From the NCBI RefSeq assembly GCF_964355755.1, contig NC_092678.1:8262422-8326421 (forward strand): DNA of 64,000 nucleotides, read 5' to 3'. This DNA comes from Antedon mediterranea (Eukaryota > Animalia > Echinodermata). The notes under the pieces are model-generated. The model saw only the letters and a list, made by a program, of their open reading frames with translations. It searched no databases and was not told the origin of the DNA. The first letter of the stretch is position 1; every line of letters starts with the position of its first letter. The position numbers and the translations under genes were made by a program. Of this stretch, positions 615 to 49,293 are shown piece after piece.

Positions 615-3600
615 ATGACAACTTTAAGATCGGGTAAAAATATAGATAAGACTATGTCAGAAAAAGATACTAGGGAAGAAATGGTTGACCAAGAAGAGGT
701 TGACCAAGTCAATGAAATGTATGATAACATGGCTAGGGATATTGATTTGCCCGAAATACCCGGCGGTATGCCTAAAGATATGATGCTCGAATATTTTCGA
801 ATGAAGTTCGAGGCCGAGGCCGAAAACAAAAAGTTAGAATTACAATACCAACAAGACCAATTAAGATTAGAAGCAGATATAGAGCAAAGAAAAATTGAAA
901 ATGATGGAATTAGAAAATAGGTCTAGCTACAGTAATGCTAGGAATATAGTAGATGAAATGAAGGTAAAGGTTCCTACTTTGAAGGAATCAGATGATATTG
1001 ATATATATTTTAGAACATTTGAACACTTGGCAGAAGCCACAGGTTGGGATAAGAATACGTGGTCCGCTAGGTTAGCACCTGAACTGTCTGGTAAAGCTAG
1101 GACAGCATATGCATCCTTAACCGTAAAAGAATGTGTAGATTATGATACCTTAAAGAAGGCAATCTTAGAAAAGTATGATGTGTCCGCAGAGACCTACAGA
1201 TTTAAATTTAGAAATTCAAACAGAGTTAAAGATATGTCCATCAGGGAATGGCTGAATGAGCTCCCATTATTTAAAATGTTGGATGAAATGTGCTAATGTA
1301 AAAGAAGATGATGCTGCAGGCATTATTGAAATGATTATAATGGAACAGGCACTTGATAAAATGCCTGAAGATCTGAGGCTTTATCTTAGAGATAAACAAG
1401 TAAATAAGAGCTATGATATGGCTATGATAGCCGATGATTATATAGCTAATAGAGGTGGCCGTGGCTATTGGAATGCCGTAAATTCTGAAAATAAGCCTAC
1501 GTATTATAAGGGCCAAGAAAATAGTAAACCTAAGAATAGTACGACTCAGAATAACCCTGGAGCTAGGCAGCAAGGATACAATAGGTATCGCGGAAGGGAA
1601 GGCAAATTCCATATCTATGGTAGAAATTTCAAACAGAGAGAACCTTCAAATGAATGGATTAATGGCCTATGCTTTAATTGTAAGGAGAAGGGACATAAAA
1701 TAGGGGATTGTCCTAAGATGGTAGCAAAAGGAAAGACTAGTGACACTAAGAAGGGCCCGAATGTGAAAGATGGTTTAAGATGTGAAGAAATAAAATCAGA
1801 TAGACCCCAAGTAGTTATGGATAGTGTAGAAAATAAAATGGAGAAGTGTACATTAACAGGAAAATTAGAAGGACAGGATATAACTATGCTAAGAGACTCG
1901 GGATGTACCCAGTCAGCTGTTAAGGAAAGTCTAGTGCCTAACAAATGTTACTTGCCAGGAAAATGGGTTACGTTAAGAGGTATAGGAGGCGATATTACCG
2001 TCCCCTTAGCTAAGGTAGCTATAGAAAGTAAGATAGTGACAGGAAAAGTGATTGTAGCCGTAATCGAAGGATTACAGAGGGACATGTTATTTTTGGGTCA
2101 TGATTTGGACAAGAATTGTGGGGAAACAATGGCTAAAGAAATGTTCGTCCTAACTAGGGAGCAAGCCAGAATAGAAAATGATGTTAGAATACAAGACGAA
2201 ATGATATTGTTAGGGAAAGATAGTAACTTTAAGCCGATAGAAGAGCCGCCTAAAGAAACTAATGTACAATTGTTGAAAACAGTAGTAAATGACAACAAAG
2301 TAAATAAAACTAAGTGTTTAGATGATATGAATGAAACAGAAATGAATAATTTGTTTGACGAAAATGAGGATAAAGCTAAAGATAAAACAGTCAAACATAA
2401 AACTTATGAACAACAGCACAAGCTGAACCTAACTAAACAAGAACTGATCAAATTGCAAACTAAGGATGACTCACTCAAAGGAGTGTTTGACAGGGTAGTC
2501 CCTATAGAAGAAATAGGTCAGCATAGGGTATGTTTCTTTATGAGACAAGGTATATTGATGAGAAATTGGAGTAGTATTAAAGATAAGAATAACCAAGTGG
2601 AACAGATTGTATTACCCACTCAGTGTAGACAGGGTGTATTACACTTAGGTCATAATGTGCCATTTGCAGGTCACATGGGTGTTGAGAAAACTAAAAGTAG
2701 GATCCTGAACCAATTCTATTGGCCAGGTATATTTAAAGATGTGGTAGTCTATTGTAAAGTCTGTAAGGAATGCCAAAAGGTAGATAAGGGTAAAAGTAAA
2801 AGGAAACATACTTTGATACCATTACCGATTATAAGTACACCATTTAAACGTATAGCGATATACATTGTTGGACCCTTATCTAGAACAAGCCGTAATAACA
2901 AATATATGCTTACTATAATTGTCTATGCTACGAGATATCCGGATGCTATCCCGTTACCCAATGTTAGAGCTGAAACAGTAGCCAGGGCTCTAATAGAAGT
3001 CTTTACTAGAGTAGGATTACCCGAAGAGATTGTACATGATCAAGGAACTAATTTCATGTCTTCAATTATGCAATCTATATGTAGTATGTTGGGGATTAAT
3101 CAAAGACTACAGTGTACCACCCCCAAAGCAATGGGCTTGTTGAAAGATTTCACGGTACATTGAAAAATATGATAAGGACACTTAAATTGGGATAACTACA
3201 TACCCCCCTTTCTGTTTGCATACAGAGAAGTTCCTAGTAAAGCGACGGGCCATTCACCTTTTAAATTGCTTTATGGTAGAGAGGTGAGGGGACCCTTGAG
3301 TTTACTCAAAAGTAATTGGGTAGAAGATGAAGAAACATCTACTGATGTTATCAAATACATGTTAGACATAAGAGAAAAAATGGAGGAATTAATGAAAGAT
3401 GCTAATGTAAACAAACTTGAACAACAAGAAATTATGTCCCACAATTATAACAAGAATGCTATTGATAGAGAATTTGTAGAAGGGGACAAAGTGTTGATAT
3501 TCCTTCCAGTAGGAAATAGTAAGTTAGACAGTAAATGGCAAGGCCCCTTCACTGTTACAAAAAAGGTCAATGATGTAAATTATGAAATATAAATAGGAGG

Positions 3601-5199
3601 TAGAAGAAAAGAAAAACAAATTCTACATGTTAATATGTTAAAGAGATGGTATGATAAAGTAGAAATAAGTAAAGATGGTTATTATGTAGTAACAAATGTT
3701 CTGTCGATAGAAGAAGTAGACTTAAATGAAACAGTCCATGACAATGAGTTAGATAGTGAAATAGACATAGGATTGTCTTATCATCAATCACAAACATGGA
3801 GAGATGTTAACGTTAGTAGTAATTTAAATGATACACAAACTAAACAATTAACAGAATTGTTAAAGTACCAACAGAATGTATTCTCGGATGTACCAGGTAG
3901 AACTCACTTGGTGACACATGAAATTAAGACTAATGGTGAAATGCCTATAAGGCATAGGGCATATAGAACGCCCCAAGCATTAAAGGGTAAATTGAAAGAG
4001 GAATTAGATAGTATGTTGGCTATGGGTATAATAGAACCTACAGTTAGTGCCTATGCTGCACCTATTATTGCCCTGAAGAAAGGCCAGAATCAAATTAGAA
4101 TGGTGACAGATTTTAGATCACTAAATAAGACTACACAATTTGACCCTTATGTTATGCCTCGCATAGACGAAATGTTGGATGAGGTATCATCCGCAATATA
4201 CATAACTACGTTAGATCTAACTAAAGGATTTTACCAGGTGCCTCTGGATCCTAAGACCAAAGACAAATCAGCATTTATTACACAATTTGGACAGTATTGT
4301 TACAATGTACTTCCATTTGGTATGCAAAATAGCTCTAGTACTTTCCAAAGATTAATGGATAAGGTATTACAAGGTACTGAGGGATATGCTAAGGCATATA
4401 TAGATGACATATGTATTTATAGTCAAACTTGGAAAGATCATATTTTTCATTTGAATGATGTATTAGAAAGATTAAGTAGTGCTGGATTGACAGCAAAGCC
4501 TTTGAAATGTAAAATTGCCTATGCACAGGTAGAATTTCTGGGGCATAAGATTGGTAATGGAGAAATTAGACCCATGATTGATAAGGTTGAGGCTGTGGAA
4601 AAGTTCCCCAGACCTTTGTCTAAGAAACAAGTCCGATCATTTCTCGGATTACCTGGCTATTACAGAAAATTTGTACAGAACTATGCCGATATTGCTAAGC
4701 CATTGATTGATTTAACTTTAAAGAGTAAAAGTAATACCGTTAAGTGGAATGAACAATGTGAAAATGCCTTTGTAACTTTAAAGAAACGACTTACTGTGAT
4801 AATGTATTAAAAGCCCCAAATTTTGATAAGATGTTTATATTGCAAACCGATGCCTCAAATTATGGCATAGGTGCAGTGCTGAGCCAAATAGATGGTGAGG
4901 GTAATGATTATCCCATTGTGTACTTAAGTAGAAAGTTATCTGTACATGAGCAGAGATATTCTGTGCCAGAAAAAGAGTGCCTCTCTATTGTTTGGGCTAT
5001 CAATAAACTTAAGTATTATCTGTATGGTTGTGAATTTCAAGTTCATACTGACCACCAGGCATTGAGATGGATGGACTCAATGAAGGGTGCCAATGTTAGA
5101 CTTATGAGATGGGCTCTGTTTTTACAAGGATATAAATTTAAAGTTATTTACAAGAAAGGATCATTAAATGGAAATGCAGATGGATTAAGCCGTGCATAA
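615..5199 (+). pseudogene. Disrupted gag-pol polyprotein (SCAN-like capsid, CCHC knuckle, aspartic protease, integrase, RT, RNase H)
   Basis: Six ORF pieces split by frameshifts or stops (615-920, 895-1296, 1256-3163, 3266-3592, 3635-4810, 4831-5199). Motifs: CFNCKEKGHKIGDC, LRDSGC, HNVPFAGH..CKVC, DQGTNF, LPFGM..YIDD, QTDAS..EKE..TDH. The first integrase catalytic Asp appears mutated (RIAIYIVGP). Confidence 0.93.
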
Positions 5200-6400: not shown

Positions 6401-9348
6401 ATGAAATGTTTAAAAGCTTATTAACAGACCAGAAAAACATATTCAAAGAACCGAAAATGAGACCACCAACATGGAGATCAGATACGGAAATACCTTATGA
6501 TATTTCACAGATGTTTACCGATCCATTACTATATACTACTGAAATAAGGGAAGCAAGAAAAAAACTCACATCACTCCAACAATTAATGGACATTTTAAAG
6601 TCCAAAGATTCATGTAAAGTATTGATTACAGGTAATGGGGGAATTGGTAAGACAACGTTACTTAAATATTTATCTTATACCTGGGCAACCGATGCTGATG
6701 CCACGTTTGCTGGTAAAATACTATTTCTTGTAGACGTAAGAGACATCGAGGCAGGGCAAACAATCACAGATATAATAGTTGGTATAATTAAACGGGGAAA
6801 GTTTTATAAACACCAAGATCCTCATAAAAATACAATAGCTATAAATACATTTATAGAAAAATACAATAGAGATTTTGTTATTTTGATTGATGGATTAGAT
6901 GAGTTGAAACCTGGGGTAGATAATTTAATGTTTCACAATGATGAACTCGAAGACAGCACAGTTATTCTTACTTCACGGCCGGGATTTACATCAACGTTAC
7001 ATAAACATTATGATATACATGTGAAAGTAGAGGGATTCAATACAGAAAGCATAAAGCATTATATCAAAAGATATTTCAAATTTATCGAAAAGCATGAAAT
7101 AGGCCAGTTATTGATTAACCACTTTAAACTTAATTCACCTAATGTTACTATTTGGGGTGGTGAGCATAAACACATATTTGAACTCTTTTCATCACCTCTT
7201 TTGCTACTTAAAATGTGTACTATGTGGCAACACCACCAAGTAATTCCCAATGATTTTCAAGATTTTTTTAAAGAAATTGTTCGTTTGATTTTAAATCAGT
7301 ACATTAACAGAGGTGATAATAGACATAATATTAAAGCGATAGCAGACTTAGACAACATTCCGCCTGAATACAAACAAGCAATTATGATATTAGGAAACAT
7401 TAGTTACATTAGTTTAAAGAAAAATGAACTTTATTTTACTCAGAAAGCATTAGTAAGCTTAGGCAATGGAAGCTTAGTTGACTTACCGCTGAAATTAGGA
7501 TTTGTTTACGAAGATGACTTTACTAGTGTTCAGGATAATTTTGTTGCGACTTACCGATTTCAACTTAGGCTATTGTCAGAGATACTAGCTGGATTTTACT
7601 TGTCTAACAATATTGATACTTTAGATTTCGAAGAATTCGAGAAATTAAGGACGAACGAGTATTTACACATGACAAGAGCACTAACTATTAGTTTTCTAGG
7701 TCCCAATGCAGACACATTATTGAAACACTGGCTGGGGAATAGGGCGTCAAACTATTACTCCCTTTCAAAATATCTTAAATATGTAGGTCAAAAGCACGAA
7801 GGAAAAGTATTGATATCATTGATTGATAATATTTCTCAAGACATGAAAATACATGTTGATCATTTAACAAATTCCTTTAAAACATACTTTAATGGTGATG
7901 ATTCGCACTTATTCCAACTTCTTAAATTGTTTACAGATGAACTTACAAAAGACTCGGATAATGTATTAAATTATATCACATCAAAAATAAATAAATCAAA
8001 TAAAAAGACTTCTGAAAATGTGTGTAGGTTTGTAGCTCACATGTCCATCATATTACAATTATACCTTGATGACCGTGTGCATGCCAATAATGACATGCCG
8101 GCATTGGGTAATGAATATTTGATCAGACTAATTGAAAAGTGGGGGGATACAGCTCTTGACATTCTCTCAAATGAATGGAATCAATACCATTTAGGTAAAG
8201 AAATACGTTATTTTGTGTTTTATGAAGACGACGAATATAGGAAGACTACTGGCTTACAGATGTGCAGATTATTTCAAAACTTTCCTAACTTAGAAGTTCT
8301 TCAAATGAGTCTTTCCTGGTATAATAGTACATTACAAGGTCAACGCATTGATTCAATGATAAATGAATGCAAAAACAGTAAAGCATTTGCTAAATTAAAG
8401 AGATTTAGAATCCCGTTTCAAAATCTTCAATATATCAATGGAGCTTTATTAGGTCACATCATAAAAATTTCTGAAGATTTAGAATATTTGGATTTGTTTA
8501 ATTGTACATTATCAAGCTCTCAAATTGTTGATATGCTTAATGAAGTAAATATAAACATTTTCAAATCAAAAGGATATTTTATCAATTTAGAGCTAAATGA
8601 TCTTTCAAATATTGATAGTGATTCACTTGCAAATGTTATCAATGCGTTAAAAGTATATGATCAAAAAAAATCTGAATTGTCTTGGTTTCGTTATAATTTG
8701 ACCCCCAAACAATTACATAATCTTTTAAAATCACATTGGCGTTACAGATTTAGATGGAATAGACTTGTTTTGGATGATATCGATCTATCATCAATTGACG
8801 GAAGTACATTAGCTAATATATTTATAATATTCCCAGACTTAGTACATCTTTCTATGAATGATTGTAATATAAAAGGTGTCGCAGTTAACGGAATGCTAAA
8901 TGAGTGTTATAAAAACAATATTATTAAAAACGATTTGAATATTCTACAACGAAATATCAGTGATAGCTCATCAATCCTATCATTTATATTGAAGATGAAA
9001 AATAATAACATAACATTAGAAGTTAAAGAGTTTGAACATTATCTAATAACTTGTTATCGACATATATATAGATATATTGAAATACATATTTTTAAAGATG
9101 CCATCATGACATATTTTATAGGGTTGATGATGACTGTTATTTTTCGCCTCCTTTTTGAAAGACAGAGACAAAATCAATATAAAAAAAACAAAAAAAAACG
9201 TTATTCTTCTTATTTTTATTCATTCTTCATTTCTTTATTTTTTTCATTCCTTCTTACTATGATTTTGGCTATTTTTTTACATAACTATATTTCTTTTGCC
9301 ATAATTTTTTTTTTACCTTTAGGTACTTTATATATAAATAGTTTGTAG
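6401..9348 (+). CDS. NLR-like protein 1, terminal exon: NACHT + LRR-like region + 2-3 C-terminal hydrophobic helices; 5' exons probably upstream of the window
   Basis: Acceptor ttgatttcag at 6400 (phase 1). Walker A GNGGIGKTT, Walker B VILIDGLDE, sensor ILTSRP, SPLLL, LRR-like LEYLDLFNCTLS and LVHLSMNDCNI. Hydrophobic tail; AATAAA at ~9355. Confidence 0.9.
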
Positions 9349-23798: not shown

Positions 23799-25089
23799 TT
23801 AACCATTACTTTCAAATAAAACACATTGATTTCTTTTACTTACTAAAGTGCAAGCTTTATTATATGTAAATGTGCCTGATTTGGTGATTTTTTATTGTAA
23901 AAATGGTTAACAAATGCTGGGTTGAAGATAGGTATGAATATTTCAATTTAAATATATGTATTTATTTGTTTTTCAAAAAGTTGGACATTTCATTGGTTGA
24001 GTGGGACAACGGGACACAGCATAAACAAGCTGGACAATCTGGAAAATTTGGAATCTATGCTGTCGAGTATATTATTATTATTTACCATTTTGACGTTGCT
24101 ATTTTGCGCTTCAGTGACAGTACGCAATAATTGCAGTAGTTTCTATACAATTGATTTAGCTTGAACAATGTACATTCAAAGCTTACACAGTACATGGTTT
24201 AGTTCAGTTCAGTATTTGGTTTCAACAACACAAACGACATTGAAAATAGCCCTGCACTGTGGTTCATCAGAAAATGGAAGCAACAATAGGTAAAGTACAA
24301 ATCAATACTGTAGCTAGAAAATGAGAATCTGTCACCATAAAATACATAGGTTTGCTGTTATTACAGGGGCACAACCAACATTAAATCGAAGCGTAAGTGA
24401 ATACTCTGCGAGCGTTTTTTTTTGTGCCAAAATGAGGGGGTACAGGACCCTATGAACGAATTTTCAAAAATGTACCTAATAACACAGTTTTGGCTACATT
24501 ATATTCATCTTTATTCACTAATATCCTTTACGAAGAAGGAGCCAACGCATGTAGGTTACAGTACTAACTAATTCCAGCAAAATGCCTACTAAATCTAATT
24601 TAGGGGCCTACGAGTCATAGCCATTTTCTCACTAACGTACTACTGTAACTGTAACATTGAGTCGTATTCATCATACCAGAATCGTTTCCGGTATACCGTA
24701 AAACTGTGTTTTTTTTATTTCTATCTTTCATTATTTTTTTTCTCTGATTTCATTCAGTATGACTGGTCCCTCCCTCTCATTAATTTTGTATGGTGTTCAT
24801 GGAATTATATTTTAGCTTAATAGCTCCCTGAGTTCATTTAAATTTGATTCATTGTTTTGACTCACTTTGTGAGGTAATTCGGAGATGTGAAATGTTATTT
24901 GATTACATAAATCACCATATCTGTATGGAAGACTGGTAATAGTTCCGCGGTACACAGTTAAGGGTCTTTCATACATTTATTGTACAGTATTTTAGAACCA
25001 TCTGTGGGCACGACAATCTAGTTGTACGAAAGGTGTGTAAAGAGATAAACTCTCATATTTATAATATGATTGGTTTCTTTATAGAAATT

Positions 25090-25696
25090 ATGTGCCTAGC
25101 ATTCAGTGCTGTCATCATCAGTATTATAGGACTAATACATTTATACTACTTTGTCTACGACTATGAAAAACCCATGGAGTTTACAACATTGAAAGCTACC
25201 CTCGGTACATACTACGAAGGTAAACAATACCGTTGGTTGAAATTCTGTTTATTTGAACATCTAAATGTGGCCGACATTACAAATTCAGACAAAAATGCAA
25301 ATGTCTTGTTTAATGATCTTGAACGGGAAGGCTTCATCACACCTACTAATGTTAACTTGCTATTAGAAATTACAAAACTATCACAAATTAGGATAGCTGA
25401 AGATCTTGTAAGAAGGTACATGCAAGTCAATACAATTCAGCATGTGCTTAAAATTGATAAAACAATGAAATTGTCATCTCATCGGAAGCGGCTGTTTAAA
25501 GCTATGAGACAAATTAGAGACACAGATTTATTATATATTACTTCTCGGTACGAACTAAGCCATTTGAAATTCACAAATGTTTTTGATGCAGTACTCAAAC
25601 TGGAGATTGACAACGATCTCTCGAAAGAACCAGACAAAGTAAACAAATTCGCAAGTTGTCTCAACCCAACTGCAAAAAACATATTAATTACTAATG
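25090..25696 (+). CDS. NLR-like protein 2, predicted first coding exon: hydrophobic N-terminus + tandem death-effector-like domains
   Basis: Acceptor ttctttatag at 25084, ATG 25090. DED-like pattern LKFCL..LFNDLEREGFITPTNVNLL..DLVRRY, then a second helical repeat. Donor G|gtaagt at 25696 is phase 1, matching the downstream acceptors. Confidence 0.75.
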
Positions 25697-26122
25697 GTAA
25701 GTTGATTATAACATGTTCTTTTTAATATCCATGAGTTACTGGTTCTTTTTGTAAAAACCAAGCAATTTGAGAACTAACCCTAACAGTTTCGCTGTCCTGT
25801 TCGGACGTATTCTTCAGAAGAAATGACAAAATCTGTCATTAAACAGACTGACCTCTCACGAGATAGAAGGCTAATTCTCTTTACACAATTTTAAAGAAGG
25901 CGATATAAAAGTGGCTTGTTATCTATTTTTACTAGTTTAAAAAAGCAGAATAAGATCAACACAAGTCAGTACAACTTACTATTTCCTACGGCAGAAAACA
26001 TCCCACGTGTCTATACTACACCTACGATACACAAAGAAGGTAAACAAGTTGAACCCATTGTTGACTACACACAGGATCCATAGCGTATGAAACCGCAAAA
26101 GCCGTTGCTGATATCTTTTCTC

Positions 26123-30504: not shown

Positions 30505-33166
30505 ATATCAACATTCGGAATTATTTAACAACAGAACAGATAAACAAATTCAAGAACCCACTAATAAGACCACCAACGTGGAAAACAGGTAATTGGTACA
30601 ATATTTCTCATATGTTTACCGATCCAATACTATATACTGCTACAGCTGGAGAGGAAAGAAAGAACCTCATATCATTTCAAGAATTATTGGACATTATAAA
30701 GTTGAGAGATTCATGTAAAGTACTGATGACAGGAAATGGGGGAATTGGTAAGACAACGTTACTTAGATATATTTCTTATACCTGGGCAACCGATGCTGAT
30801 GCTACGTTTGCTGGTAAAATATTATTTCTTGTAGACGTAAGAGATATTGAGGCAGGTAAAACCATCACAGATATAATCATTGATGCAGTTCAGCTTCATA
30901 AAAACGGTATCTATACAAAGGAAACTATTATAACTTTCTTAGAGAAATACGACAATGAATTAGTTGTTCTAATAGATGGTTTAGATGAGTTAAAATCCGG
31001 AATAGATATTTCACTGAAAGAAGAACTGAAAGACAGTATAATTATTCTGACTTCACGACCGGGTTTTAATGCTAATTTTAAAATACATTATGACGTACTT
31101 GTAAAAGTAGAGGCATTCGCTACTCAAACAATAAAGCAATATATTAACAGGTATTTTGAATTTCGAAATCCTAAGCTGGCTCAGCAATTGATTACTGAAT
31201 TTGAAAGTGATTCACTTGATATAAATAGTTGGGGTGGTGAGCACAAAAACATATTTGAACTCTCTTCGTCGCCATTTTTGTTACTAAAAATATGTAGTCT
31301 GTGGCAGGAAAAACAACAAATGCCAAACGATTTTCAAAATTTCTTAAAAGAAGTTTTTCGTTCCATAATAAATCAATATATTAACAGAAGTGACGGACGT
31401 ACCAAAGCTATTGGAAAATTTAAAGACATTCCAAATGACTATGAAAAGGCAATTCTGATATTGGGAAACATTAGTTACATTCGTTTACAGAAAAATGTAC
31501 TTAACTTTACTCACAGCCAATTATATAATTTAGTAGAAAATAAAACATTATTTGATTTATCATTAAAAATAGGATTTGTTTACAAAGATGATGAATATAT
31601 TAATGATCAGACTTACAGATGTTCACATAAGATATTATCAGAGGCACTAGCAGGCTATTATTTGTCTAAAATAATTGAGACGTTAGGATATGACGAATGC
31701 GAGAAAATAAGGACGAACCCGTATTTACACATGACAAGAGTTTTTACTATTAGTTTTCTTGGTCCCAATGCAGACAAATTTATGAAACACTGGTTGGTAA
31801 ATAGGGCCTCAAATTATTACTCATTTTCAAAGTATTTTAAATATGTAAATCAAGAGCACGAAAAAAAAGTGGCCGATGAAGTATTGAAATCATTAAATAC
31901 ACCAAAAATGAAAGAAAATGTCGAAACTTTAACTAAATCTTTAAAAGATTTTTTGTATTTCGCCCCAAAAGATGCTCAATTATTACAACTCCTTAAATTA
32001 TTTTCAAATGACCTTTCAAGTAACTCGATTTTAGTTATAAAAAAGGTGGTGTCATTTATAAATGACACGAATCAGGAAGATGTGTGCAGAGTTGTAGCTC
32101 ACTTGTCAATCATATTACAACTTTATAAAGCTGAACATCAAAATATACCACTAATTGATACATATTTGATAAAATTACTTGAAAAAAGGGATGACAAATG
32201 TCTTGAAATTCTTTCAACCGAATTCAAGAAATACAATTTAAGTGAAGAGATACGCTCTTTTATGTTTTTCGAAGATGATGAACTCTTAACAAATTTTTAT
32301 ATTAATGGCTCAAAGATGTGCACATTTTTTCAAAACTTTCCAAACCTAGAAGTTCTCCACTTAAGTCTTTATTGTGTTTCGACCATGGGTGCATTACACA
32401 GTCCACGTATTGAGGAAATGGTAAACGAATGTAAACACAATGAAACATTCGCTAAGTTGAAGACGTTTAGTCTTCCGTTTCAAAATCTTTCCTGTATCAA
32501 TGGGGCTTCATTAGGTCACATTCTAAATAGTTCTAGAGATTTAGATGATTTCAACTTGACTTCATGTAATTTATCAAGCAAACATATAGTTGATATGCTG
32601 AATGAAGTAGACAAAATATATTTAACGTCGAAACAAAATTTTATTAATTTAGAACTAAACGATCTGTCAAGTATTGATAAGGATTCACTTGGGAATCTTA
32701 TTAATGTATTAAACACTGCTGATTCGAAAGAACCTAAATTATCTTGGGTTCGTTATAATTTATCAGCCAACGAATTACATAATCTGTTGATTTCAACCTG
32801 GCGTCACAATTTTAGATGGAATAGTCTTATTTTGGACGGAGTTGACTTATCATCCATAAAAGGAAGTACATTAGCTAATGTATTTATTATATTTCCAAAT
32901 TTAATATATCTTTCTATGAACGATTGTAATTTAAATGGTTCTATTGTTAATTTAATACTAGATGAATGTTATAAAAATAATATAATAAAGAAAGGTGAAT
33001 TAATATCTCTTAAAGGAAATGACCTTTTGAATATTAATGATAAAGCAATAATCACATTATTTGTTTTCAGAAGAAATGACAACAATGTAACATTAGAAAT
33101 GGAAGAATGGCGTTATTACACCTTTAGCACACACCTTTTGATATGTGTCATGTTATTGGCACTGGG

Positions 33167-33200
<34 letters not shown>

Positions 33201-33263
33201 GTTATTGTTATTGTTATTATTATTATTATTATTCTGTCATTCTTCTGTCCCACTGTCACTTGA
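30505..33263 (+). CDS. NLR-like protein 2, terminal exon: NACHT + LRR-like region + C-terminal hydrophobic helix
   Basis: Acceptor atatttag at 30504 (phase 1); open through RPPTW into ORF 30612-33263. GNGGIGKTT, LIDGLDE, ILTSRP. Colinear paralogue of 6401-9348. Confidence 0.9.
33171..33233 (+). repeat. (ATT/GTT)n microsatellite inside the NLR-2 reading frame
   Basis: Encodes a run of about 20 Ile/Val residues. Confidence 0.9.
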
Positions 33264-39346: not shown

Positions 39347-42316
39347 ATGGCAAAGTTAGTACCTGTACCAGTTTTACTTGTTTTTATACAATTCATTTTG
39401 AGTGACGTGAAAGGTCATGAAATCCAGTTACACCACAGCCATAGAAGAAACAATGTCAATGGACAATCAGAAGAAGAATCTCGAAATAAACGTGATTCAG
39501 AAATAGTAAAACATACACTACATTCAACCGAGAGTATAAACGGGAATTGTTTGATACCGATAGATGCAAAAGATCTATTGGAAGACTTAACAGCTGGCTA
39601 CACCTTCATACATGTCTTTCTGTCCTTCCCCGCAGACGATAAGAACATTTTAGTGAATGACTCTGAATCAGTTGTTGTCAACCCAGCGCATTGGGTGTGG
39701 ATTGTAGGAACAGAAGGTGTTCATTTGGCAAGACTTCCTTTTGACTTCATCTTTCTATCTCTTGGAACCCTGAAACCTGGTGTAAGCAAAATCACAATTG
39801 AAACTAGCCAAACGCCTTGTTTTCTACAGGCCAATGATAACGAGCGACTGGATATAATCGCAAATTCTATTCTAAAAAGCGTGAACACCACCAACGAACC
39901 AATAAACTCAGTTTGTATTGAAATGATAAAATCGCGAGAAACACTTCAAATTCCTTGGTACTATATTCATTATGTTAGTTCATATCTGATATTCCAAATC
40001 GATACATACTATGAATGTTTTAACAGTTCTGCAACGACCTTTGACATTGACCATGAAGATGTCAGCGTTCAACTAACAGTTGTGTTTGTTTTAAGTTTTA
40101 TACTAAGTTTGTTTTTTCCACTTTTTATCGGTTTTTTCCATAGAAAAATGCCCGTTGTATTTAAATCACCAATTTCGTGTTCACACGTAATGGACGCTTC
40201 GTTATCCAGGAATTTTACATCGAAGGATGGCCCAGTTTCTCCACAAATAGTGGTTGATCATTTTAATCCTGGTAGCGCTGATGACATATCTATAGAAACC
40301 AACAAGTTTCTTAATCTTGAAACTGATTTATCTTTAGGAATAAAACATTTTCTTTTATTTTTTGGTAATCGTTACAACTTGATCTTCATAGCCAGGTGGG
40401 TTATTTACATTGTACTTTTCATTGCGTTGCCTTACATCCCCATTATCTTTGTTAGTTCGACAGAAGAACTTGACTTCAGCAAAAGGCGTGAAAAATCATT
40501 TATCAACGGCATTTTAAATGCAAACTTCAACACGTTTTCTCATATTTTTTTTAATCTATCGATCTTCTTAATGTTTATTATTGTTCTGTATTTTAAGTCA
40601 ATATATTCTAATAAATTTCATCTTGCTTTAAATGAGAAAGAAAATGAAAGAAGAAGATTGCTGTGGTGGCGAGATTTACCACATAGTTTGAAGATCCCTA
40701 ACGATCAGTACCAAGGAACCCAGAAGTTCCTCTTCCTAATGGTCACCCGAATGAAGATGGGAGCAAGCATTCAAGTTTGGAAATATGGATTTGATATCTA
40801 TAAAGACTTCATCAATCGGCATTTCAACAACAGATCTATTTTAAAGAAAATAATGTTTATTCTTTTATTTTTACCATTTTTCGCCTTGTTCTTGATTTCA
40901 ATTCTGGTTACATCAATTCCCACACTTTATTGCTTTACTCGAGTGATTCTGTTTAGTCTGTCTTTTCGAAGTGTACTCAACGACGTCGGCGATCCATCTG
41001 GTAATTTTACTCAAGACGTCAGGAGACGACTAAGCGCAACAATTGAAAGATATTTTGAAGAAGACACCACTGATGCTGATGATACTAATAAGAAAATGCT
41101 TGCTTCAGAACCTGGATATGATGCATGTTCAGTAAATGGAGAAACGGTTCTGCAAAGTTTACCTAATGATGAACTAAAGTCCATAGTAAATGATAAATCA
41201 GATGTGCTAGTCACTAATATTGATCCTATTACTGGAGAGAATGATGTTAAGCAATACACACAGATGCTAGATGATATTCAACTGACTTCAGTGGATACCG
41301 TTAGTGATGCCAGAGAAGAGGAAGATGGCAATGCTATAATTCCACCAGCAGTTAATGCAACTATAAAGCATGATGTCAACCGTTCTCTTTTATCTGTACT
41401 CTTCGTTTTTATCTATGCTATCTGGGTGGTTAGTTTTATCTTTGGTTGGTGGGGGATCATATCAAAGGTCTTCTTTATTTTTTTCTACTTGACCGAGATC
41501 GTCTGGTACACGTTTCTAGGAATAACATGGAATTCACATCAAGTTGCGCCATATGTCCTTTTCGTTTTGCTGTTTCTTGCGTACTCTGTTCCTGTAATAA
41601 CGGGCTATTACGACGATTATTGTCAATTGTTGACTAAAATTATTGTCATTATGAAACATATTTTGAAAGAAAAAAAGAAGGAAGAACGATCCTACAAAGA
41701 TAAAATGAACAGTGACCAATATTCTAACAATATGAAGCATGAGTCATCTAAAAAGAAAAACAATAGTGAAGGCGATCACGAATTACTAACCGCTCAGGAT
41801 GGTGAAGCTAGGCCTACTCTTGCGAAGAAGCGTTATGGACATGCCTACATCACTGCCGTCAATATGCCTTACAATATGGCAATTGACCGAGGACTGTTTG
41901 AGTTTATAGTTGATAAATACCAACCTACGGGTCCTAACAAAATCGCACGTTTAGTTCGCATACTATCGTTTGCGATCCTTCTGTACTGTGGCATAGAGGC
42001 TCTACTTGGACTTAATGAGTTTAGTAATGTCTCTGACGAGATAAAATTATTTGCATCTATATTAATAGCTGGTATCCTTCCAACACTGGCTAGAATCGTC
42101 CAGAACCAAGGACAGAAAACAAGGGAACAAAGCATACGCGTGATGGAGATTAGAAGAGATATTGAGGTGTACTTCCTTACTGGTCAACCGTATAGAGACG
42201 TCGGTTGTAAGTGGCCGTCTGGCGTTAATAATGAAGACCAGACGGCAAATGTGGATACAAAATTTGATTTTGAAGGATCACTAGAAAATGATATATATCG
42301 TTTGTCTGTTTATTAA
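39347..42316 (+). CDS. Uncharacterised ~989-aa multi-pass membrane protein with signal peptide, single coding exon
   Basis: ATG just after acceptor tttttcag. Hydrophobic leader, RNKR site, Cys-containing ectodomain, roughly 9-11 hydrophobic segments, long acidic loop. Uninterrupted 3-kb ORF. Confidence 0.85.
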   Translation: MAKLVPVPVLLVFIQFILSDVKGHEIQLHHSHRRNNVNGQSEEESRNKRDSEIVKHTLHSTESINGNCLIPIDAKDLLEDLTAGYTFIHVFLSFPADDKNILVNDSESVVVNPAHWVWIVGTEGVHLARLPFDFIFLSLGTLKPGVSKITIETSQTPCFLQANDNERLDIIANSILKSVNTTNEPINSVCIEMIKSRETLQIPWYYIHYVSSYLIFQIDTYYECFNSSATTFDIDHEDVSVQLTVVFVLSFILSLFFPLFIGFFHRKMPVVFKSPISCSHVMDASLSRNFTSKDGPVSPQIVVDHFNPGSADDISIETNKFLNLETDLSLGIKHFLLFFGNRYNLIFIARWVIYIVLFIALPYIPIIFVSSTEELDFSKRREKSFINGILNANFNTFSHIFFNLSIFLMFIIVLYFKSIYSNKFHLALNEKENERRRLLWWRDLPHSLKIPNDQYQGTQKFLFLMVTRMKMGASIQVWKYGFDIYKDFINRHFNNRSILKKIMFILLFLPFFALFLISILVTSIPTLYCFTRVILFSLSFRSVLNDVGDPSGNFTQDVRRRLSATIERYFEEDTTDADDTNKKMLASEPGYDACSVNGETVLQSLPNDELKSIVNDKSDVLVTNIDPITGENDVKQYTQMLDDIQLTSVDTVSDAREEEDGNAIIPPAVNATIKHDVNRSLLSVLFVFIYAIWVVSFIFGWWGIISKVFFIFFYLTEIVWYTFLGITWNSHQVAPYVLFVLLFLAYSVPVITGYYDDYCQLLTKIIVIMKHILKEKKKEERSYKDKMNSDQYSNNMKHESSKKKNNSEGDHELLTAQDGEARPTLAKKRYGHAYITAVNMPYNMAIDRGLFEFIVDKYQPTGPNKIARLVRILSFAILLYCGIEALLGLNEFSNVSDEIKLFASILIAGILPTLARIVQNQGQKTREQSIRVMEIRRDIEVYFLTGQPYRDVGCKWPSGVNNEDQTANVDTKFDFEGSLENDIYRLSVY

Positions 42317-45232: not shown

Positions 45233-46217
45233 TCCACTCCAACCAAGATTTCAGTCGTGTTACCTTTACCAATGGATAGTCGTTTAATACCAATCCAACA
45301 GCCAAGATTTCAGTCGTGTTACGTATAGGCCTACCACATGCTTAGTCTAGTCGTTTAATACCAATCCAACAACCAAGATTTTAGTTGTGTTACCGAAAAG
45401 TGTTTCGTTTAATACCAATCCAACAGCCCAGATTTCAGTCGTGTTATGTATACCAATGGATAGTCGTTTCATACCAATCCAACAACCAAGATTCCAGTCG
45501 TGTTACGTATAGGCATACTACATGCTTAGTCTAGTCGTTTAATACCAATCCAACAACCAAGATTTCAGTCGTGTTACCTAATACCAGTGTTTCGATTAGT
45601 ACCAATCCAACAACCAATATTTCAGTCGTGTTATGTATACCAATGGATAGTCGTTTAATACCAATCCAACAGCCAAGATTTCAGTCGTGTTACGTATAGG
45701 CCTACCACATGCTTAGTCTAGTCGTTTAATACCAATCCAACAACCAAGATTTTAGTTGTGTTACCGAAAAGTGTTTCGTTTAATACCAATCCAACAGCCC
45801 AGATTTCAGTCGTGTTACGTATAGGCATACCACATGCTTAGTCTAGTCGTTTAATACCAATCCAACAGCCCAGATTTCAGTCGTGTTATGTATACCAATG
45901 GATAGTCGTTTCATACCAATCCAACAACCAAGATTTCAGTCGTGTTACGTATAGGCCTACCACATGCTTAGTCTAGTCGTTTAATACCAATCCAACAACC
46001 ACGATTTTAGTTGTGTTATGTATACCAATGGATAGTCGTTAGATACCAATCCAACAATCAATATTTCAGTCATGTTACGTATTAGGACTACCACATATTA
46101 GTCTAGTTGTTTAGTACCAATCCAACAACCAAGATTCCAGTCGTGTTACCGAAAAGTGTTTCGTTTAATACCAATCCAGCCAAGATTTCAGTCGTGTTAC
46201 GTATACCAATTCATAGC
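45208..46217 (+). repeat. Modular minisatellite: ~16 copies of a ~44-bp core separated by three recurring linker types
   Basis: Core GTCGTTTAATACCAATCCAACAACCAAGATTTCAGTCGTGTTAC. Linkers GTATAGGCCTACCACATGCTTAGTCTA, CGAAAAGTGTT and GTATACCAATGGATA. Confidence 0.95.
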
Positions 46218-47553
46218 TGGTAACATCAACAACTATTCTTCCGAGGACATACCTGTACTGAACATTGAAATAAACATATTTACAACTTCCTTATTTTCTA
46301 AAGACATTAGTTTTCTGACCTGTGCTGATAACAACAGACCCATCAGTTGTGTAACACCAAGGCCCTTGGTTTAGGAACCCCCAGTGGCCCTCCAATGCTG
46401 GAAACTACAGTAGCCAATGAGCCCTTATAGCCGTAACGCCACTGAGGCCATAGTATTTAAATTTTAAATAATTAATACTCTTCCCTTTATCCGCTCATAT
46501 AGGATAGTCAAACTAATATGAAATGAATGAATTAAATAATAATGTTCTAATAAAAATATTATTAAAATGAAAATTATAAGTAATGAAGTTAATTTAGGAA
46601 TATCATATCTGTAGTTGTACTTATTTACGTTACAATATTGTAAAAAGTTTTTAAATATTACTTGCGAAGTCAGAGTTTCGTATTCGAATACAGTACATGC
46701 TTCCAGCTCAGGGTTCGATATTTTGTCATTAATATTATGATGAGTAATGTTGTTATTATTTACCTTTGATTGTATCGTGTGTTTTACAAGCATACTACAA
46801 TGACGATGTGTGTGACTACCGGTATTTTACGAAATTCAATTTTGTTCATTATTTTATTCATTGACAATTTATGTACTGTGAATTTGTTTTAATTTTTACA
46901 TAATGCAGTTCTACTAAATTTAAAGTAAGTCTATATGGAACAATTTGATTTTAGTATTTTCTTCTTACGTAAATTAAATGATATTTTTCCGAGAAAATCA
47001 GCTTGTAAATTGTATTGTCTTTTTATGTTTAGTATTCAAGTCGGTGTTTGGAAAATCATTCTGTTGTGACGCGAAAAGCATCACCGCTGCTGATAAGAAA
47101 AGTTGCTTGGTACAATATTTCTGCGTTTTTGTGAATTTTTATTTCGAGATCATAAACCGTATAGTGTCATTTATCTAAAACAATTAATTAGCTATACAAA
47201 AAACATCGTCGGACACATGCATGTCATAGTTATTTTTAAATTTGTTGCAACTGTTGTAAAAAGTAAAACCTGAATGATGTGATGTCCCTCTGTTGACCGT
47301 CCATTTATTGTTCAAATTTAGTTGTTGTAGATTTGGCTATGGAAAAGATAGAGCCTCAATATGTTACCGAAACAATAGTTTATCAATATTTTGTGTTCTT
47401 GGACTTAACATAATTTACAGTGTTAATATTCTAGTGCAGTACCGTATGTTCTAAAATTATGAATCACAAAATGAAAAAGTGATATATCTGTAGTATTAGT
47501 TGGTATGCTTTGATCTTCTTTCGTGTACAACAGGTTGCAGTACGTGGCTTGGC

Positions 47554-48033
47554 CTACATGTCCAATGATGCAAGATATTCAGCAATAACTGCCACACCTT
47601 TATTTGTGTGTCCTTGGCTTCCTCCCTTTTTTGTATGGGCGATAACTATGGCAGTTTTTGAAGACTGCATCGTAATTGCTCCATTATCCTTCTTTTTACC
47701 CAAAACAAGTACTGTGCCGTCTTTTTTCTCTTCGCTCCTCAAAAATTGGTATTTAACCCCCTCAGCTTGTATACCACTTGCCTGAAACGTTGAGAAATCC
47801 TTAGTTCTAAAAGGCACCGCTATGTCCGCACCCTCACCAGCTTCTAGTATAAGAGCGTTCGAATGGTCCGCTGTTGTCCAAGATTCGCCATCATCTAAGC
47901 CAATTATACAGGCTTTGTCTACTTGACCAGCAGTGTGACCGATCACATTATTAATGTATGAATCCCAACTGCCCGTGTACACCGGGCTTATAAGTGAAAA
48001 ACAAATCAAGACAACCAAACTAATGAAACCCAT
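47554..48033 (-). CDS. Profilin-family protein with a predicted N-terminal signal peptide, intronless
   Basis: SWDSYINN, DKACIIG, GVKYQFLR, QSSKTAIVIAH, NKGVAVIAEYLASL match echinoderm-type profilin. Preceded by MGFISLVVLICFSLISPVYTG. Confidence 0.92.
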   Translation of the reverse strand: MGFISLVVLICFSLISPVYTGSWDSYINNVIGHTAGQVDKACIIGLDDGESWTTADHSNALILEAGEGADIAVPFRTKDFSTFQASGIQAEGVKYQFLRSEEKKDGTVLVLGKKKDNGAITMQSSKTAIVIAHTKKGGSQGHTNKGVAVIAEYLASLDM

Positions 48034-48561
48034 TTTTCCTTCTTCCAGTTAAGAATTATGTGAGTTTTAGACTAACGCGCGCTTTAGAAGGACTGAACAT
48101 ATTTCCACAATTTGTATCCCTTTTGTTCTTATAACGATTACAGTTTAATTACAGCAATATTTATTGTATTATGATGATTAGTATTGTCATATAGACAAAA
48201 GTCGTGAGATCGCAAAGGTGTATTGATAATTAAAATTGACCTTAACTGGATGACCCCGGGTTTCCCTTTGTACCTTCTAATCCTCGTTGTCAGCAACGTA
48301 TTGTTTTCAGCATATTTATCATTTAATTTTTAATTTAATGCATATTAAAACAAACAAACAATTGTTGTAATTCAGAATCATTTAATTTTTAATTTAATTT
48401 AGCATATTGAACAAACAAACCGTTGTTGACATAACTCGATGTTTATTTTGTAAGTTTTTAATGGACCGATAATTTTAAAATGGCTCTCTTTTAAATTAAC
48501 CTTTCGAGTTTGCGACAACACATTTTAGAATTTGGCGTACATTGGGATGCCTATCACAACG

Positions 48562-48743
48562 TAGCCTGGGTTCCAGACGGAGTTTTGACTTAATATTAGT
48601 TAAAAGATAAATATTTTGGCACATATGGCGTTTCATACGTATACTACTTGAGCTTGTAAACTTGTATTTCCAGACAAAAATCGAAACGTCGACTGGTGGA
48701 GTAACATAAAAAAGACAATAAATACAGACTTGGAGCAAGTCTA
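48562..48743 (-). mobile_element. TAG...CTA 9-bp-TSD non-autonomous transposon copy
   Basis: TSD ATCACAACG; matches 28762-28923. Confidence 0.85.
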
Positions 48744-49293
48744 ATCACAACGTAGCGACCGACCGATGTAGGCATGCTTATTTCTAGACTTGCTCCAAGT
48801 CTGTAGGTACTGTGTAGGCCTACATAAAAATAATTCAGGGTTTATAAAATTACGAATTAGACCGCGTGGTGGTGTCTAGACAAAAGTTTATATATAGCAA
48901 CTAATTAAATAGCGTGTTTATAAAATCTAAAAAATAGAAATTAATGAAGTTAGTAGTGCAGTAATTTGAATTATATTTTCTTTATCAACAAAACCAGATT
49001 AAACAACATTCATTAAATCTGGTTTCAGTTTTCCAAGAGATTCCTAGGCCTCAGCAATTATTGATCAATTTATTTATTTATTTATTTATTTCGTTTTCTT
49101 TTAGTAGGGTAGCCCTCTCAGTAATAAAATAAAACTGCTCTTCCGAGGGGCCCTACGGCACATTTAAACAAAATTTGAAAACAACTTAAACTAAACTTAA
49201 ACTAAAACTTAAACTAAAACTAAACTTCAATGCATGTTCTCATTATTATTATAACTTTTATACCATATTTAAATATATTTCACTGGAACCATC

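Follow-up and report, generated by a model that had tools for sequence, protein, structure and literature searches.

Profilin is regarded as a cytosolic protein, and profilin and actin form a textbook pair. To our knowledge, the identity of the actin-monomer buffer in animals without Gc-globulin is an open question. The described scavengers of extracellular actin are plasma gelsolin, Gc-globulin, leaked profilin-1, and thymosin beta-4, among which profilin-1 binds G-actin much more weakly than Gc-globulin (PMC13763760). In the available portion of this 2026 review, profilin-1 and thymosin are presented without an extracellularly specialised form, and their sources are given as platelets and damaged cells (PMC13763760). 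In Drosophila, alternative splicing of one gene was experimentally shown to yield a gelsolin with a signal peptide, which is found in the body fluid (PMC2119988), and extracellular actin acts as a damage signal (PMC5138034). Meloidogyne MiPFN3 and Toxoplasma profilin act outside the producing cell, and MiPFN3 is described, in the accessible part of the source, as lacking a canonical signal (PMC5871015). The cyanobacterium Microcystis carries an intracellular eukaryote-type profilin, PfnM, together with a co-transferred actin, ActM (PMC3254629). Actin has been reported among the sea-urchin extracellular proteins (PMC6763604); the text matches to “profilin” in the available part of that source are to the word “profiling”. 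Among the titles and abstract openings of the top matches of larger result sets, we found no natural profilin with a signal peptide. Since leader-bearing proteins are already databased as “profilin-like”, the sequences are known, while the class is undescribed as far as we searched.

How does the crinoid locus compare with these systems? We analysed a 64,000-nucleotide stretch of the Antedon mediterranea genome, hereafter called the window. The original prediction placed an intact, intronless open reading frame in it without stating the strand; the frame is present as a complete, intronless sequence of 159 residues plus stop (P0001; 47554..48033) on the minus strand (48033-47554), where the plus strand is riddled with stops, and the exact protein sequence is found in NCBI and UniRef. 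A tblastn search detected no second profilin copy within the 64-kb window. P0001 resembles the cytosolic echinoderm profilins (PROF_HELCR and PROF_CLYJA), with 62% identity to PROF_HELCR over 143 columns, the same fold, and the same 15 site residues. In contrast to them, it has a 20-residue leader, lacks an initiator Met ahead of SWDSY, shows a four-residue insertion and a five-residue deletion, and its domain contains one cysteine, as compared to two to four in the crinoid and sea-urchin forms examined. The canonical cytosolic architecture, with a Met right before the first Trp and no targeting leader, is absent from P0001. The job that we propose for it, the holding of actin monomers outside cells, is that of the known scavengers, whereas P0001 is a separate gene with a predicted export signal, lacks a severing domain, and is unrelated in sequence to Gc-globulin. 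Like the secreted Drosophila gelsolin, it would be the signal-peptide form of an invertebrate actin-binding family; unlike that gelsolin, it belongs to another family, is one of several separate paralogues, and is exported by prediction. The released parasite profilins share with the proposed P0001 the action outside the producing cell.

The profilin domain itself is unambiguous. The Pfam Profilin family (PF00235) matches residues 22-157 over profile positions 2-125 of 127 (E 2.5e-23), and the score of 83 bits, against a cut-off of 25, clears the family threshold across the whole domain. The AlphaFold model, built from a 14-row alignment, has a mean pLDDT of 87 and a pTM of 0.80; the pLDDT ranges from 83 to 97 from residue 21 onward, in contrast to the leader region, which is modelled with low confidence. 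The top Foldseek matches of this model are all profilins, the best being yeast profilin (E 2.2e-9, TM 0.87 by target), and both the model and these matches identify the profilin fold. In the ESM Atlas, only profilin clusters were matched, below 0.9. The predicted mature profilin (residues 21-159; 47557..47973, minus strand) contains one cysteine and no N-glycosylation sequon. As for the short charged insertion in the original prediction, four residues (47710..47721, minus strand) are truly extra relative to sea-urchin profilin, while the remainder is the normal loop of the family. Three to four residues are inserted at the same place in all three leader-bearing paralogues described below, and none in the leaderless one. 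Relative to sea-urchin profilin, P0001 also has a deletion of five residues after His33-Thr34.

Next, we investigated the leader. Residues 1-20 (47974..48033, minus strand) form a predicted signal peptide, as judged from hydropathy, a -3/-1 scan, and the leaders of the paralogues. Our home-made filter finds the Sec/SPI features, with a short n-region, a hydrophobic core, and a VYT|G site; the core is free of charge, and the maximum hydropathy over eight residues is 3.38. Among 522 ATG-opened stretches of 27 codons taken from the window as a chance control, six reach this hydropathy and ten pass the same crude filter, which the leader of P0001 passes. The strong start context claimed earlier is there as well: the ATG lies in GGAAAAATGG (48030..48036, minus strand), where position -3 is A and position +4 is G. 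The 400 nt before it contain eight further ATGs, none of which opens more than a short frame. Within residues 1-122, Met occurs only at 1 and 122. Codon 21 is GGC where the leaderless relatives have Met, in line with the statement that Met was replaced by Gly; the paralogues carry Gln at this position, and the phrase is therefore a description of the alignment, in which a single step is not demonstrated.

Where would the leader be cut? Small residues are expected at positions -3 and -1 before a signal-peptide cleavage site. Cleavage after Gly21, as originally proposed to leave SWDSY at the mature N-terminus, would put Tyr at -3, while the VYT|G site, which is common to all three leader-bearing paralogues, fits the rule. 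The cut in P0001 is thus likely to fall after Thr20, not Gly21. The mature paralogues would then start with Gln, as would P0031 and P0143, which are unrelated leader-bearing relatives, and this Gln could be capped as pyroglutamate. Read-through noise is an unlikely source of the leader, and we consider it probable that it mediates SRP-dependent entry into the ER and is cleaved there.

Three further profilin-like proteins of A. mediterranea bear on this reading: P0002 (XP_071959987), P0284 (XP_071959986), and P0071 (XP_071959988). P0002 and P0284 retain the same leader, ending like that of P0001 in PVYT, and P0071 is an ordinary, cytosolic-type profilin without it. In all three pairs of leader-bearing paralogues, the leader is more conserved than the domain: 14/20 against 92/138 identical positions for P0001 and P0002, 16/20 against 59/143 for P0002 and P0284, and 15/20 (75%) against 60/139 (43%) for P0001 and P0284, the most diverged paralogue. 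Our trees separate P0001 from P0002, a split that we do not trust, as the union of the two is not rejected (p-AU 0.11); a common origin is favoured because the shared leader and insertion argue for it. The housekeeping role likely stays with the leaderless P0071. Thus, the idea of a duplicate redirected to the secretory pathway appears well supported by the leader kept in three paralogues, the separate leaderless paralogue, and the recurrence of leaders in other animals.

Does the predicted secreted protein still have the means to bind actin? We selected ten positions that we take to be on the actin face of profilin and five that we take to form the polyproline site. All ten actin-face positions of P0001 equal those of the sea-urchin and crinoid cytosolic profilins, and all five polyproline-site residues (W23, Y26, W52, Y153, and L154) are retained. 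Moreover, of the 65 columns that reach a conservation of 85% or more in its leaderless relatives, P0001 agrees with 60, the five departures comparing with a median of two. The 60 columns and the 15 site positions together suggest that ligand binding is likely retained, and the mature protein, if secreted, probably binds actin. We considered a specific loss at the equivalent of Lys115 of Acanthamoeba profilin, which is named as cross-linked to actin in a reference title in PMC2119855, and rejected it, as Val149 of P0001 is the consensus of the subfamily. Secretion and actin binding in the same protein have, in our estimate from sequence, an even chance or slightly better.

Leaders of this kind recur beyond the crinoid. 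Two word-indexed searches (the best 120 of 239 and the best 120 of 835 matches), together with cluster members, yielded 179 proteins, of which 150 have the usual Met start, eight are extended with an inner Met, 18 are extended without one, and three were unparsed. Two of the 18 Met-less extensions are not leaders; the others include proteins of Owenia, Mytilus galloprovincialis, and M. coruscus, as well as two bacterial genes. A region search added a Patiria miniata profilin with a leader plus a pro-piece, and a cluster look-up added a Met-less leader profilin of M. edulis. Together with the Ruditapes protein below, Met-less hydrophobic leaders occur in named proteins of Owenia, three Mytilus species, Patiria, and Ruditapes. 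A full profile search, from which the best 150 of 740 matches were taken, gave 148 new identifiers; 97 of these reach the domain start, and 30 of the 97 have at least ten extra residues, which we labelled by eye as signal-like leaders (16, including P0284 and a Ruditapes protein), internal hydrophobic stretches (seven, of which five also carry a fused actin domain), and other extensions (seven).

Some relatives have a more elaborate architecture. P0188 (Patiria), P0135 (Mytilus), and P0214 combine a leader with extra modules, namely a pro-piece of about 30 residues with a basic C-terminal end, a module rich in cysteine, or an ShK domain. In P0207, P0211, P0278, and P0305, the profilin domain is followed by a hydrophobic C-terminal tail whose end is basic, and three of them also have a signal-like leader; from sequence they are predicted to be cell-surface-anchored profilins. 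P0229, P0234, P0277, P0279, and P0326 (459-574 aa) start with a hydrophobic stretch, after which a profilin domain and a divergent actin domain are fused, a seemingly membrane-anchored arrangement that looks unusual; one protein in the same cluster as P0229 bears the label Polykrikos kofoidii, a dinoflagellate.

We also compared the cysteine content. In the first set, a single cysteine is present in all 13 leader-labelled domains (one of them, P0111, being a partial sequence labelled by likeness), as compared to 11 of 151 leaderless ones. In a more diverged set, at most one cysteine is found in 7 of 12 leader-bearing and 10 of 58 leaderless domains (Fisher p 0.006, uncorrected for the tree). 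An independent-pairs test, with too few pairs to reach significance, gave four pairs, about two in the same direction, none in the opposite one, and two with no difference. Exceptions among the leader forms are Patiria P0188, with two cysteines, and P0212 and P0311, with three each, and some leaderless sisters have one cysteine as well. The low cysteine content of the leader forms is thus suggestive of life in an oxidising compartment.

To see how the gene varies within the species, we compared the window with a second haplotype, for whose main contig 17 of 19 differences were visible. The listed differences include 15 in the coding sequence, 11 nonsynonymous and four synonymous over about 368 and 109 sites, respectively, and ten differences of the second haplotype are also present in the DNA run X3 at about half depth. 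The resulting pN/pS is about 0.8, and therefore no purifying selection is visible between the haplotypes. Neither a stop nor a frameshift is among the listed differences, and each of its three leader changes is to a hydrophobic residue. Within 47814-47952, two haplotypes of one DNA run differ at 10 sites in 139 nt of coding sequence, which is unusually dense.

In a rival reading, the protein is secreted, but not mainly for actin: it would belong to a fast-evolving defence or matrix protein family, whose profilin scaffold binds microbial surfaces, anionic lipids, or proteins rich in proline. In secreted defence-peptide families, the leader is conserved while the mature part diverges, and the crinoid paralogues display this pattern. 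The richness of the allelic change in amino-acid replacements, the added ShK or cysteine-rich modules, pro-pieces, and membrane tails of some relatives, and the loss of many actin-face residues in P0284, P0267, P0311, P0330, and P0353 all fit this idea. P0284 retains five of the ten positions and has lost the first Trp, and it and several other leader-bearing relatives keep three to six, the leaderless rows of the set being equally variable (p 0.34). In contrast, 9-10 of the ten positions are intact in P0001 and P0002 as well as in the Owenia, Mytilus, and Patiria copies, and the pN/pS does not exceed 1. We consider a role mainly apart from actin unlikely. The near-neutral alleles and the site loss in P0284 suggest a family whose function may be diverging or whose constraint may be relaxing.

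In another reading, selection is relaxed and P0001 is a once-secreted duplicate that is drifting to loss, its leader real and its activity small. The near-neutral alleles are compatible with such decay, as are two residues of the window haplotype, N28 and K136, at columns in which D and E are 99% conserved; the other haplotype carries the consensus residue at both. The end branch of P0001 is also long, at 0.48-0.58 compared with medians of 0.20-0.23. On the other hand, five allelic indels are listed in the gene flanks, while no listed change in the coding stretch is a stop or a frameshift, and the retained conserved columns and a contig of presumed RNA over the gene (see below) speak for a working copy. 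We therefore regard decay as improbable, and return to the duplicated gene with a conserved leader, whose product would be a secreted binder of actin monomers.

Could the leader be no leader at all? It might be the 3′ end of an intron or a 5′ UTR that happens to be in frame, with an upstream ATG exon spliced to an AG before the Trp codon, so that an ordinary cytosolic profilin would be made. The leader DNA includes a T-rich stretch with two AG sites in one frame (47969..48010, minus strand; ending at 47987 and 47969), one of which immediately precedes the conserved Trp codon, and both might serve as acceptors. Moreover, the read-through before leaderless relatives reaches a hydropathy of 2.6-2.9. 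Such read-through is hydrophobic in several of 44 metagenome loci, yet their inner Met is retained, and the only Met-less hydrophobic leader among the parsed loci (eight of the 44 being unparsed) belongs to a bacterial gene. The composition fits coding better than splicing, as the pyrimidine fraction ahead of the proximal AG is only 0.42 and T peaks at the second codon positions of the leader (0.55); the conservation of its amino acids above those of the domain in three paralogues is likewise contrary to an intron or a UTR.

The contigs of run X1 also bear on this point. X1 is RNA by guess only, and consists of the contigs of one study; paralogue-like pieces at a depth in the thousands, as compared to about 126 in the DNA run X3, suggest that it is indeed RNA. 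One X1 contig covers an unspliced stretch (47653..48357, without an assigned strand) that crosses the leader–domain border and reaches 324 nt upstream of the ATG, and no joint or loose end was found at AG 47987 or 47969 in the contigs of this presumed RNA; bins without X1 cover were given no evidential weight. The 25-nt loose end of an X1 contig at 48357 was considered as an upstream exon and rejected, since the window offers no good match for it and its joint lacks an AG. Taken together, the splicing explanation appears very improbable. Downstream of the stop, X1 contigs over 46474-47365 and 47398-47682 and AATAAA motifs at 47309, 47143, and 46858 mark a possible 3′ untranslated region (46474..47553, minus strand). 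Within it, 47049-47190 is a short element shared with a very abundant X1 sequence, at a depth of about 1,200-5,000 in X1 and 40 in X3. An Rfam search over 46300-48800 gave no matches.

How often did leaders arise? Our trees are weak, resting on 139 columns, and were made for sets of 39 and 40 rows and for 170 rows. Nine near-duplicate, partial, or fused rows were left out of the 179, and the smaller trees also omit most rows without a species name. The 170-row tree is largely unresolved. A single clade can be rejected both for the full set of ten leader rows (p-AU 0.0002) and for the eight non-bacterial ones (p-AU 0.003), and therefore at least two leader origins are required; a clade of the six leader rows from named animals is compatible with the data (p-AU 0.129). 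In Owenia, the leader copy and a leaderless profilin come out as sisters (support 98/93). Judged from these trees, leader profilins probably have more than two origins. As regards an origin as a retrocopy, which the original prediction named beside a duplicate, an intron near codon 47 is present in the leaderless L040, L043, L044, and L047 and absent from the P0001 gene; other genomic relatives are intronless as well. We saw no clear target-site duplication around the gene.

Among 185,579 species genomes of bacteria and archaea, 8 also contain an animal-type profilin, amid bacterial neighbours. These eight genes (L001-L008) belong to marine cyanobacteria (Calothrix, Moorena, Caldora, and Dapis) and a gammaproteobacterial genome; two have export-like leaders, and several are misnamed “DNA primase”. 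The carriers resemble Microcystis in having a eukaryote-type profilin in cyanobacteria, and differ from the PfnM/ActM pair in that four of four genomes tested contain no eukaryote-type actin, their matches to the actin family being weak and partial. In animals the subfamily is widespread, whereas few bacteria have it, and transfer from a eukaryote to a bacterium is therefore favoured. The reverse, in which the crinoid acquired its gene from a marine bacterium with an exported animal-type profilin, would account for the bacterial carriers, their two leaders, and the missing intron, but is scarcely credible given that this distribution is against it, that the bacterial leaders are unlike the crinoid one, that P0001 does not group with the bacterial rows, and that a single all-leader clade is rejected.

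The gene lies in animal DNA with pieces of LINE and LTR elements and NACHT genes. A nested tandem array (45240-46205; periods 34-371) flanks it on one side; on the other lies a short repeat of very high copy number (about 48560-48810), which contains a 29-nt inverted repeat. Further away, two NACHT-domain ORFs and an upstream ORF without a Pfam match, maybe a separate exon, are located at 6406-9348, 25066-25725, and 30612-33263, and the profilin gene may have an NLR-like immune gene neighbourhood 14 kb away. An intronless ORF of 989 aa at 39347-42316 (plus strand) has a signal-like N-terminus and many hydrophobic segments, with no Pfam family above the cut-off.

Based on these comparisons, P0001 is a real feature and a variant, likely secreted, of the known profilin family. 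We propose the following scheme, in which a duplicated profilin gene with a conserved leader encodes a secreted actin-monomer binder, and which we consider evenly balanced between right and wrong. The leader would direct P0001 into the ER, and the cut after Thr20 would release a 139-residue profilin outside the cell. In the seawater-like body fluid, the released profilin would bind the G-actin spilled at wounds, arm autotomy, or immune-cell lysis, thus filling the niche that Gc-globulin occupies in vertebrates. Such a scavenger role is plausible, and we put its actual use as a monomer buffer for released actin somewhat below an even chance.

Beyond the crinoid, we tentatively suggest, with less confidence still, that profilin may repeatedly and independently have been rerouted to secretion, in marine invertebrates (crinoid, sea star, annelid, and bivalves) as well as in lineages of bacteria and protist-like organisms, yielding overlooked extracellular actin-monomer buffers, an invertebrate counterpart of Gc-globulin, with the crinoid set expanded to three genes, one of which is diverging to a new ligand. 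A recurrent small, export-tagged profilin would be a direct candidate for the extracellular monomer buffer. If the actin role fails, the family would still be a case in which the profilin scaffold was recruited repeatedly for secreted proteins.
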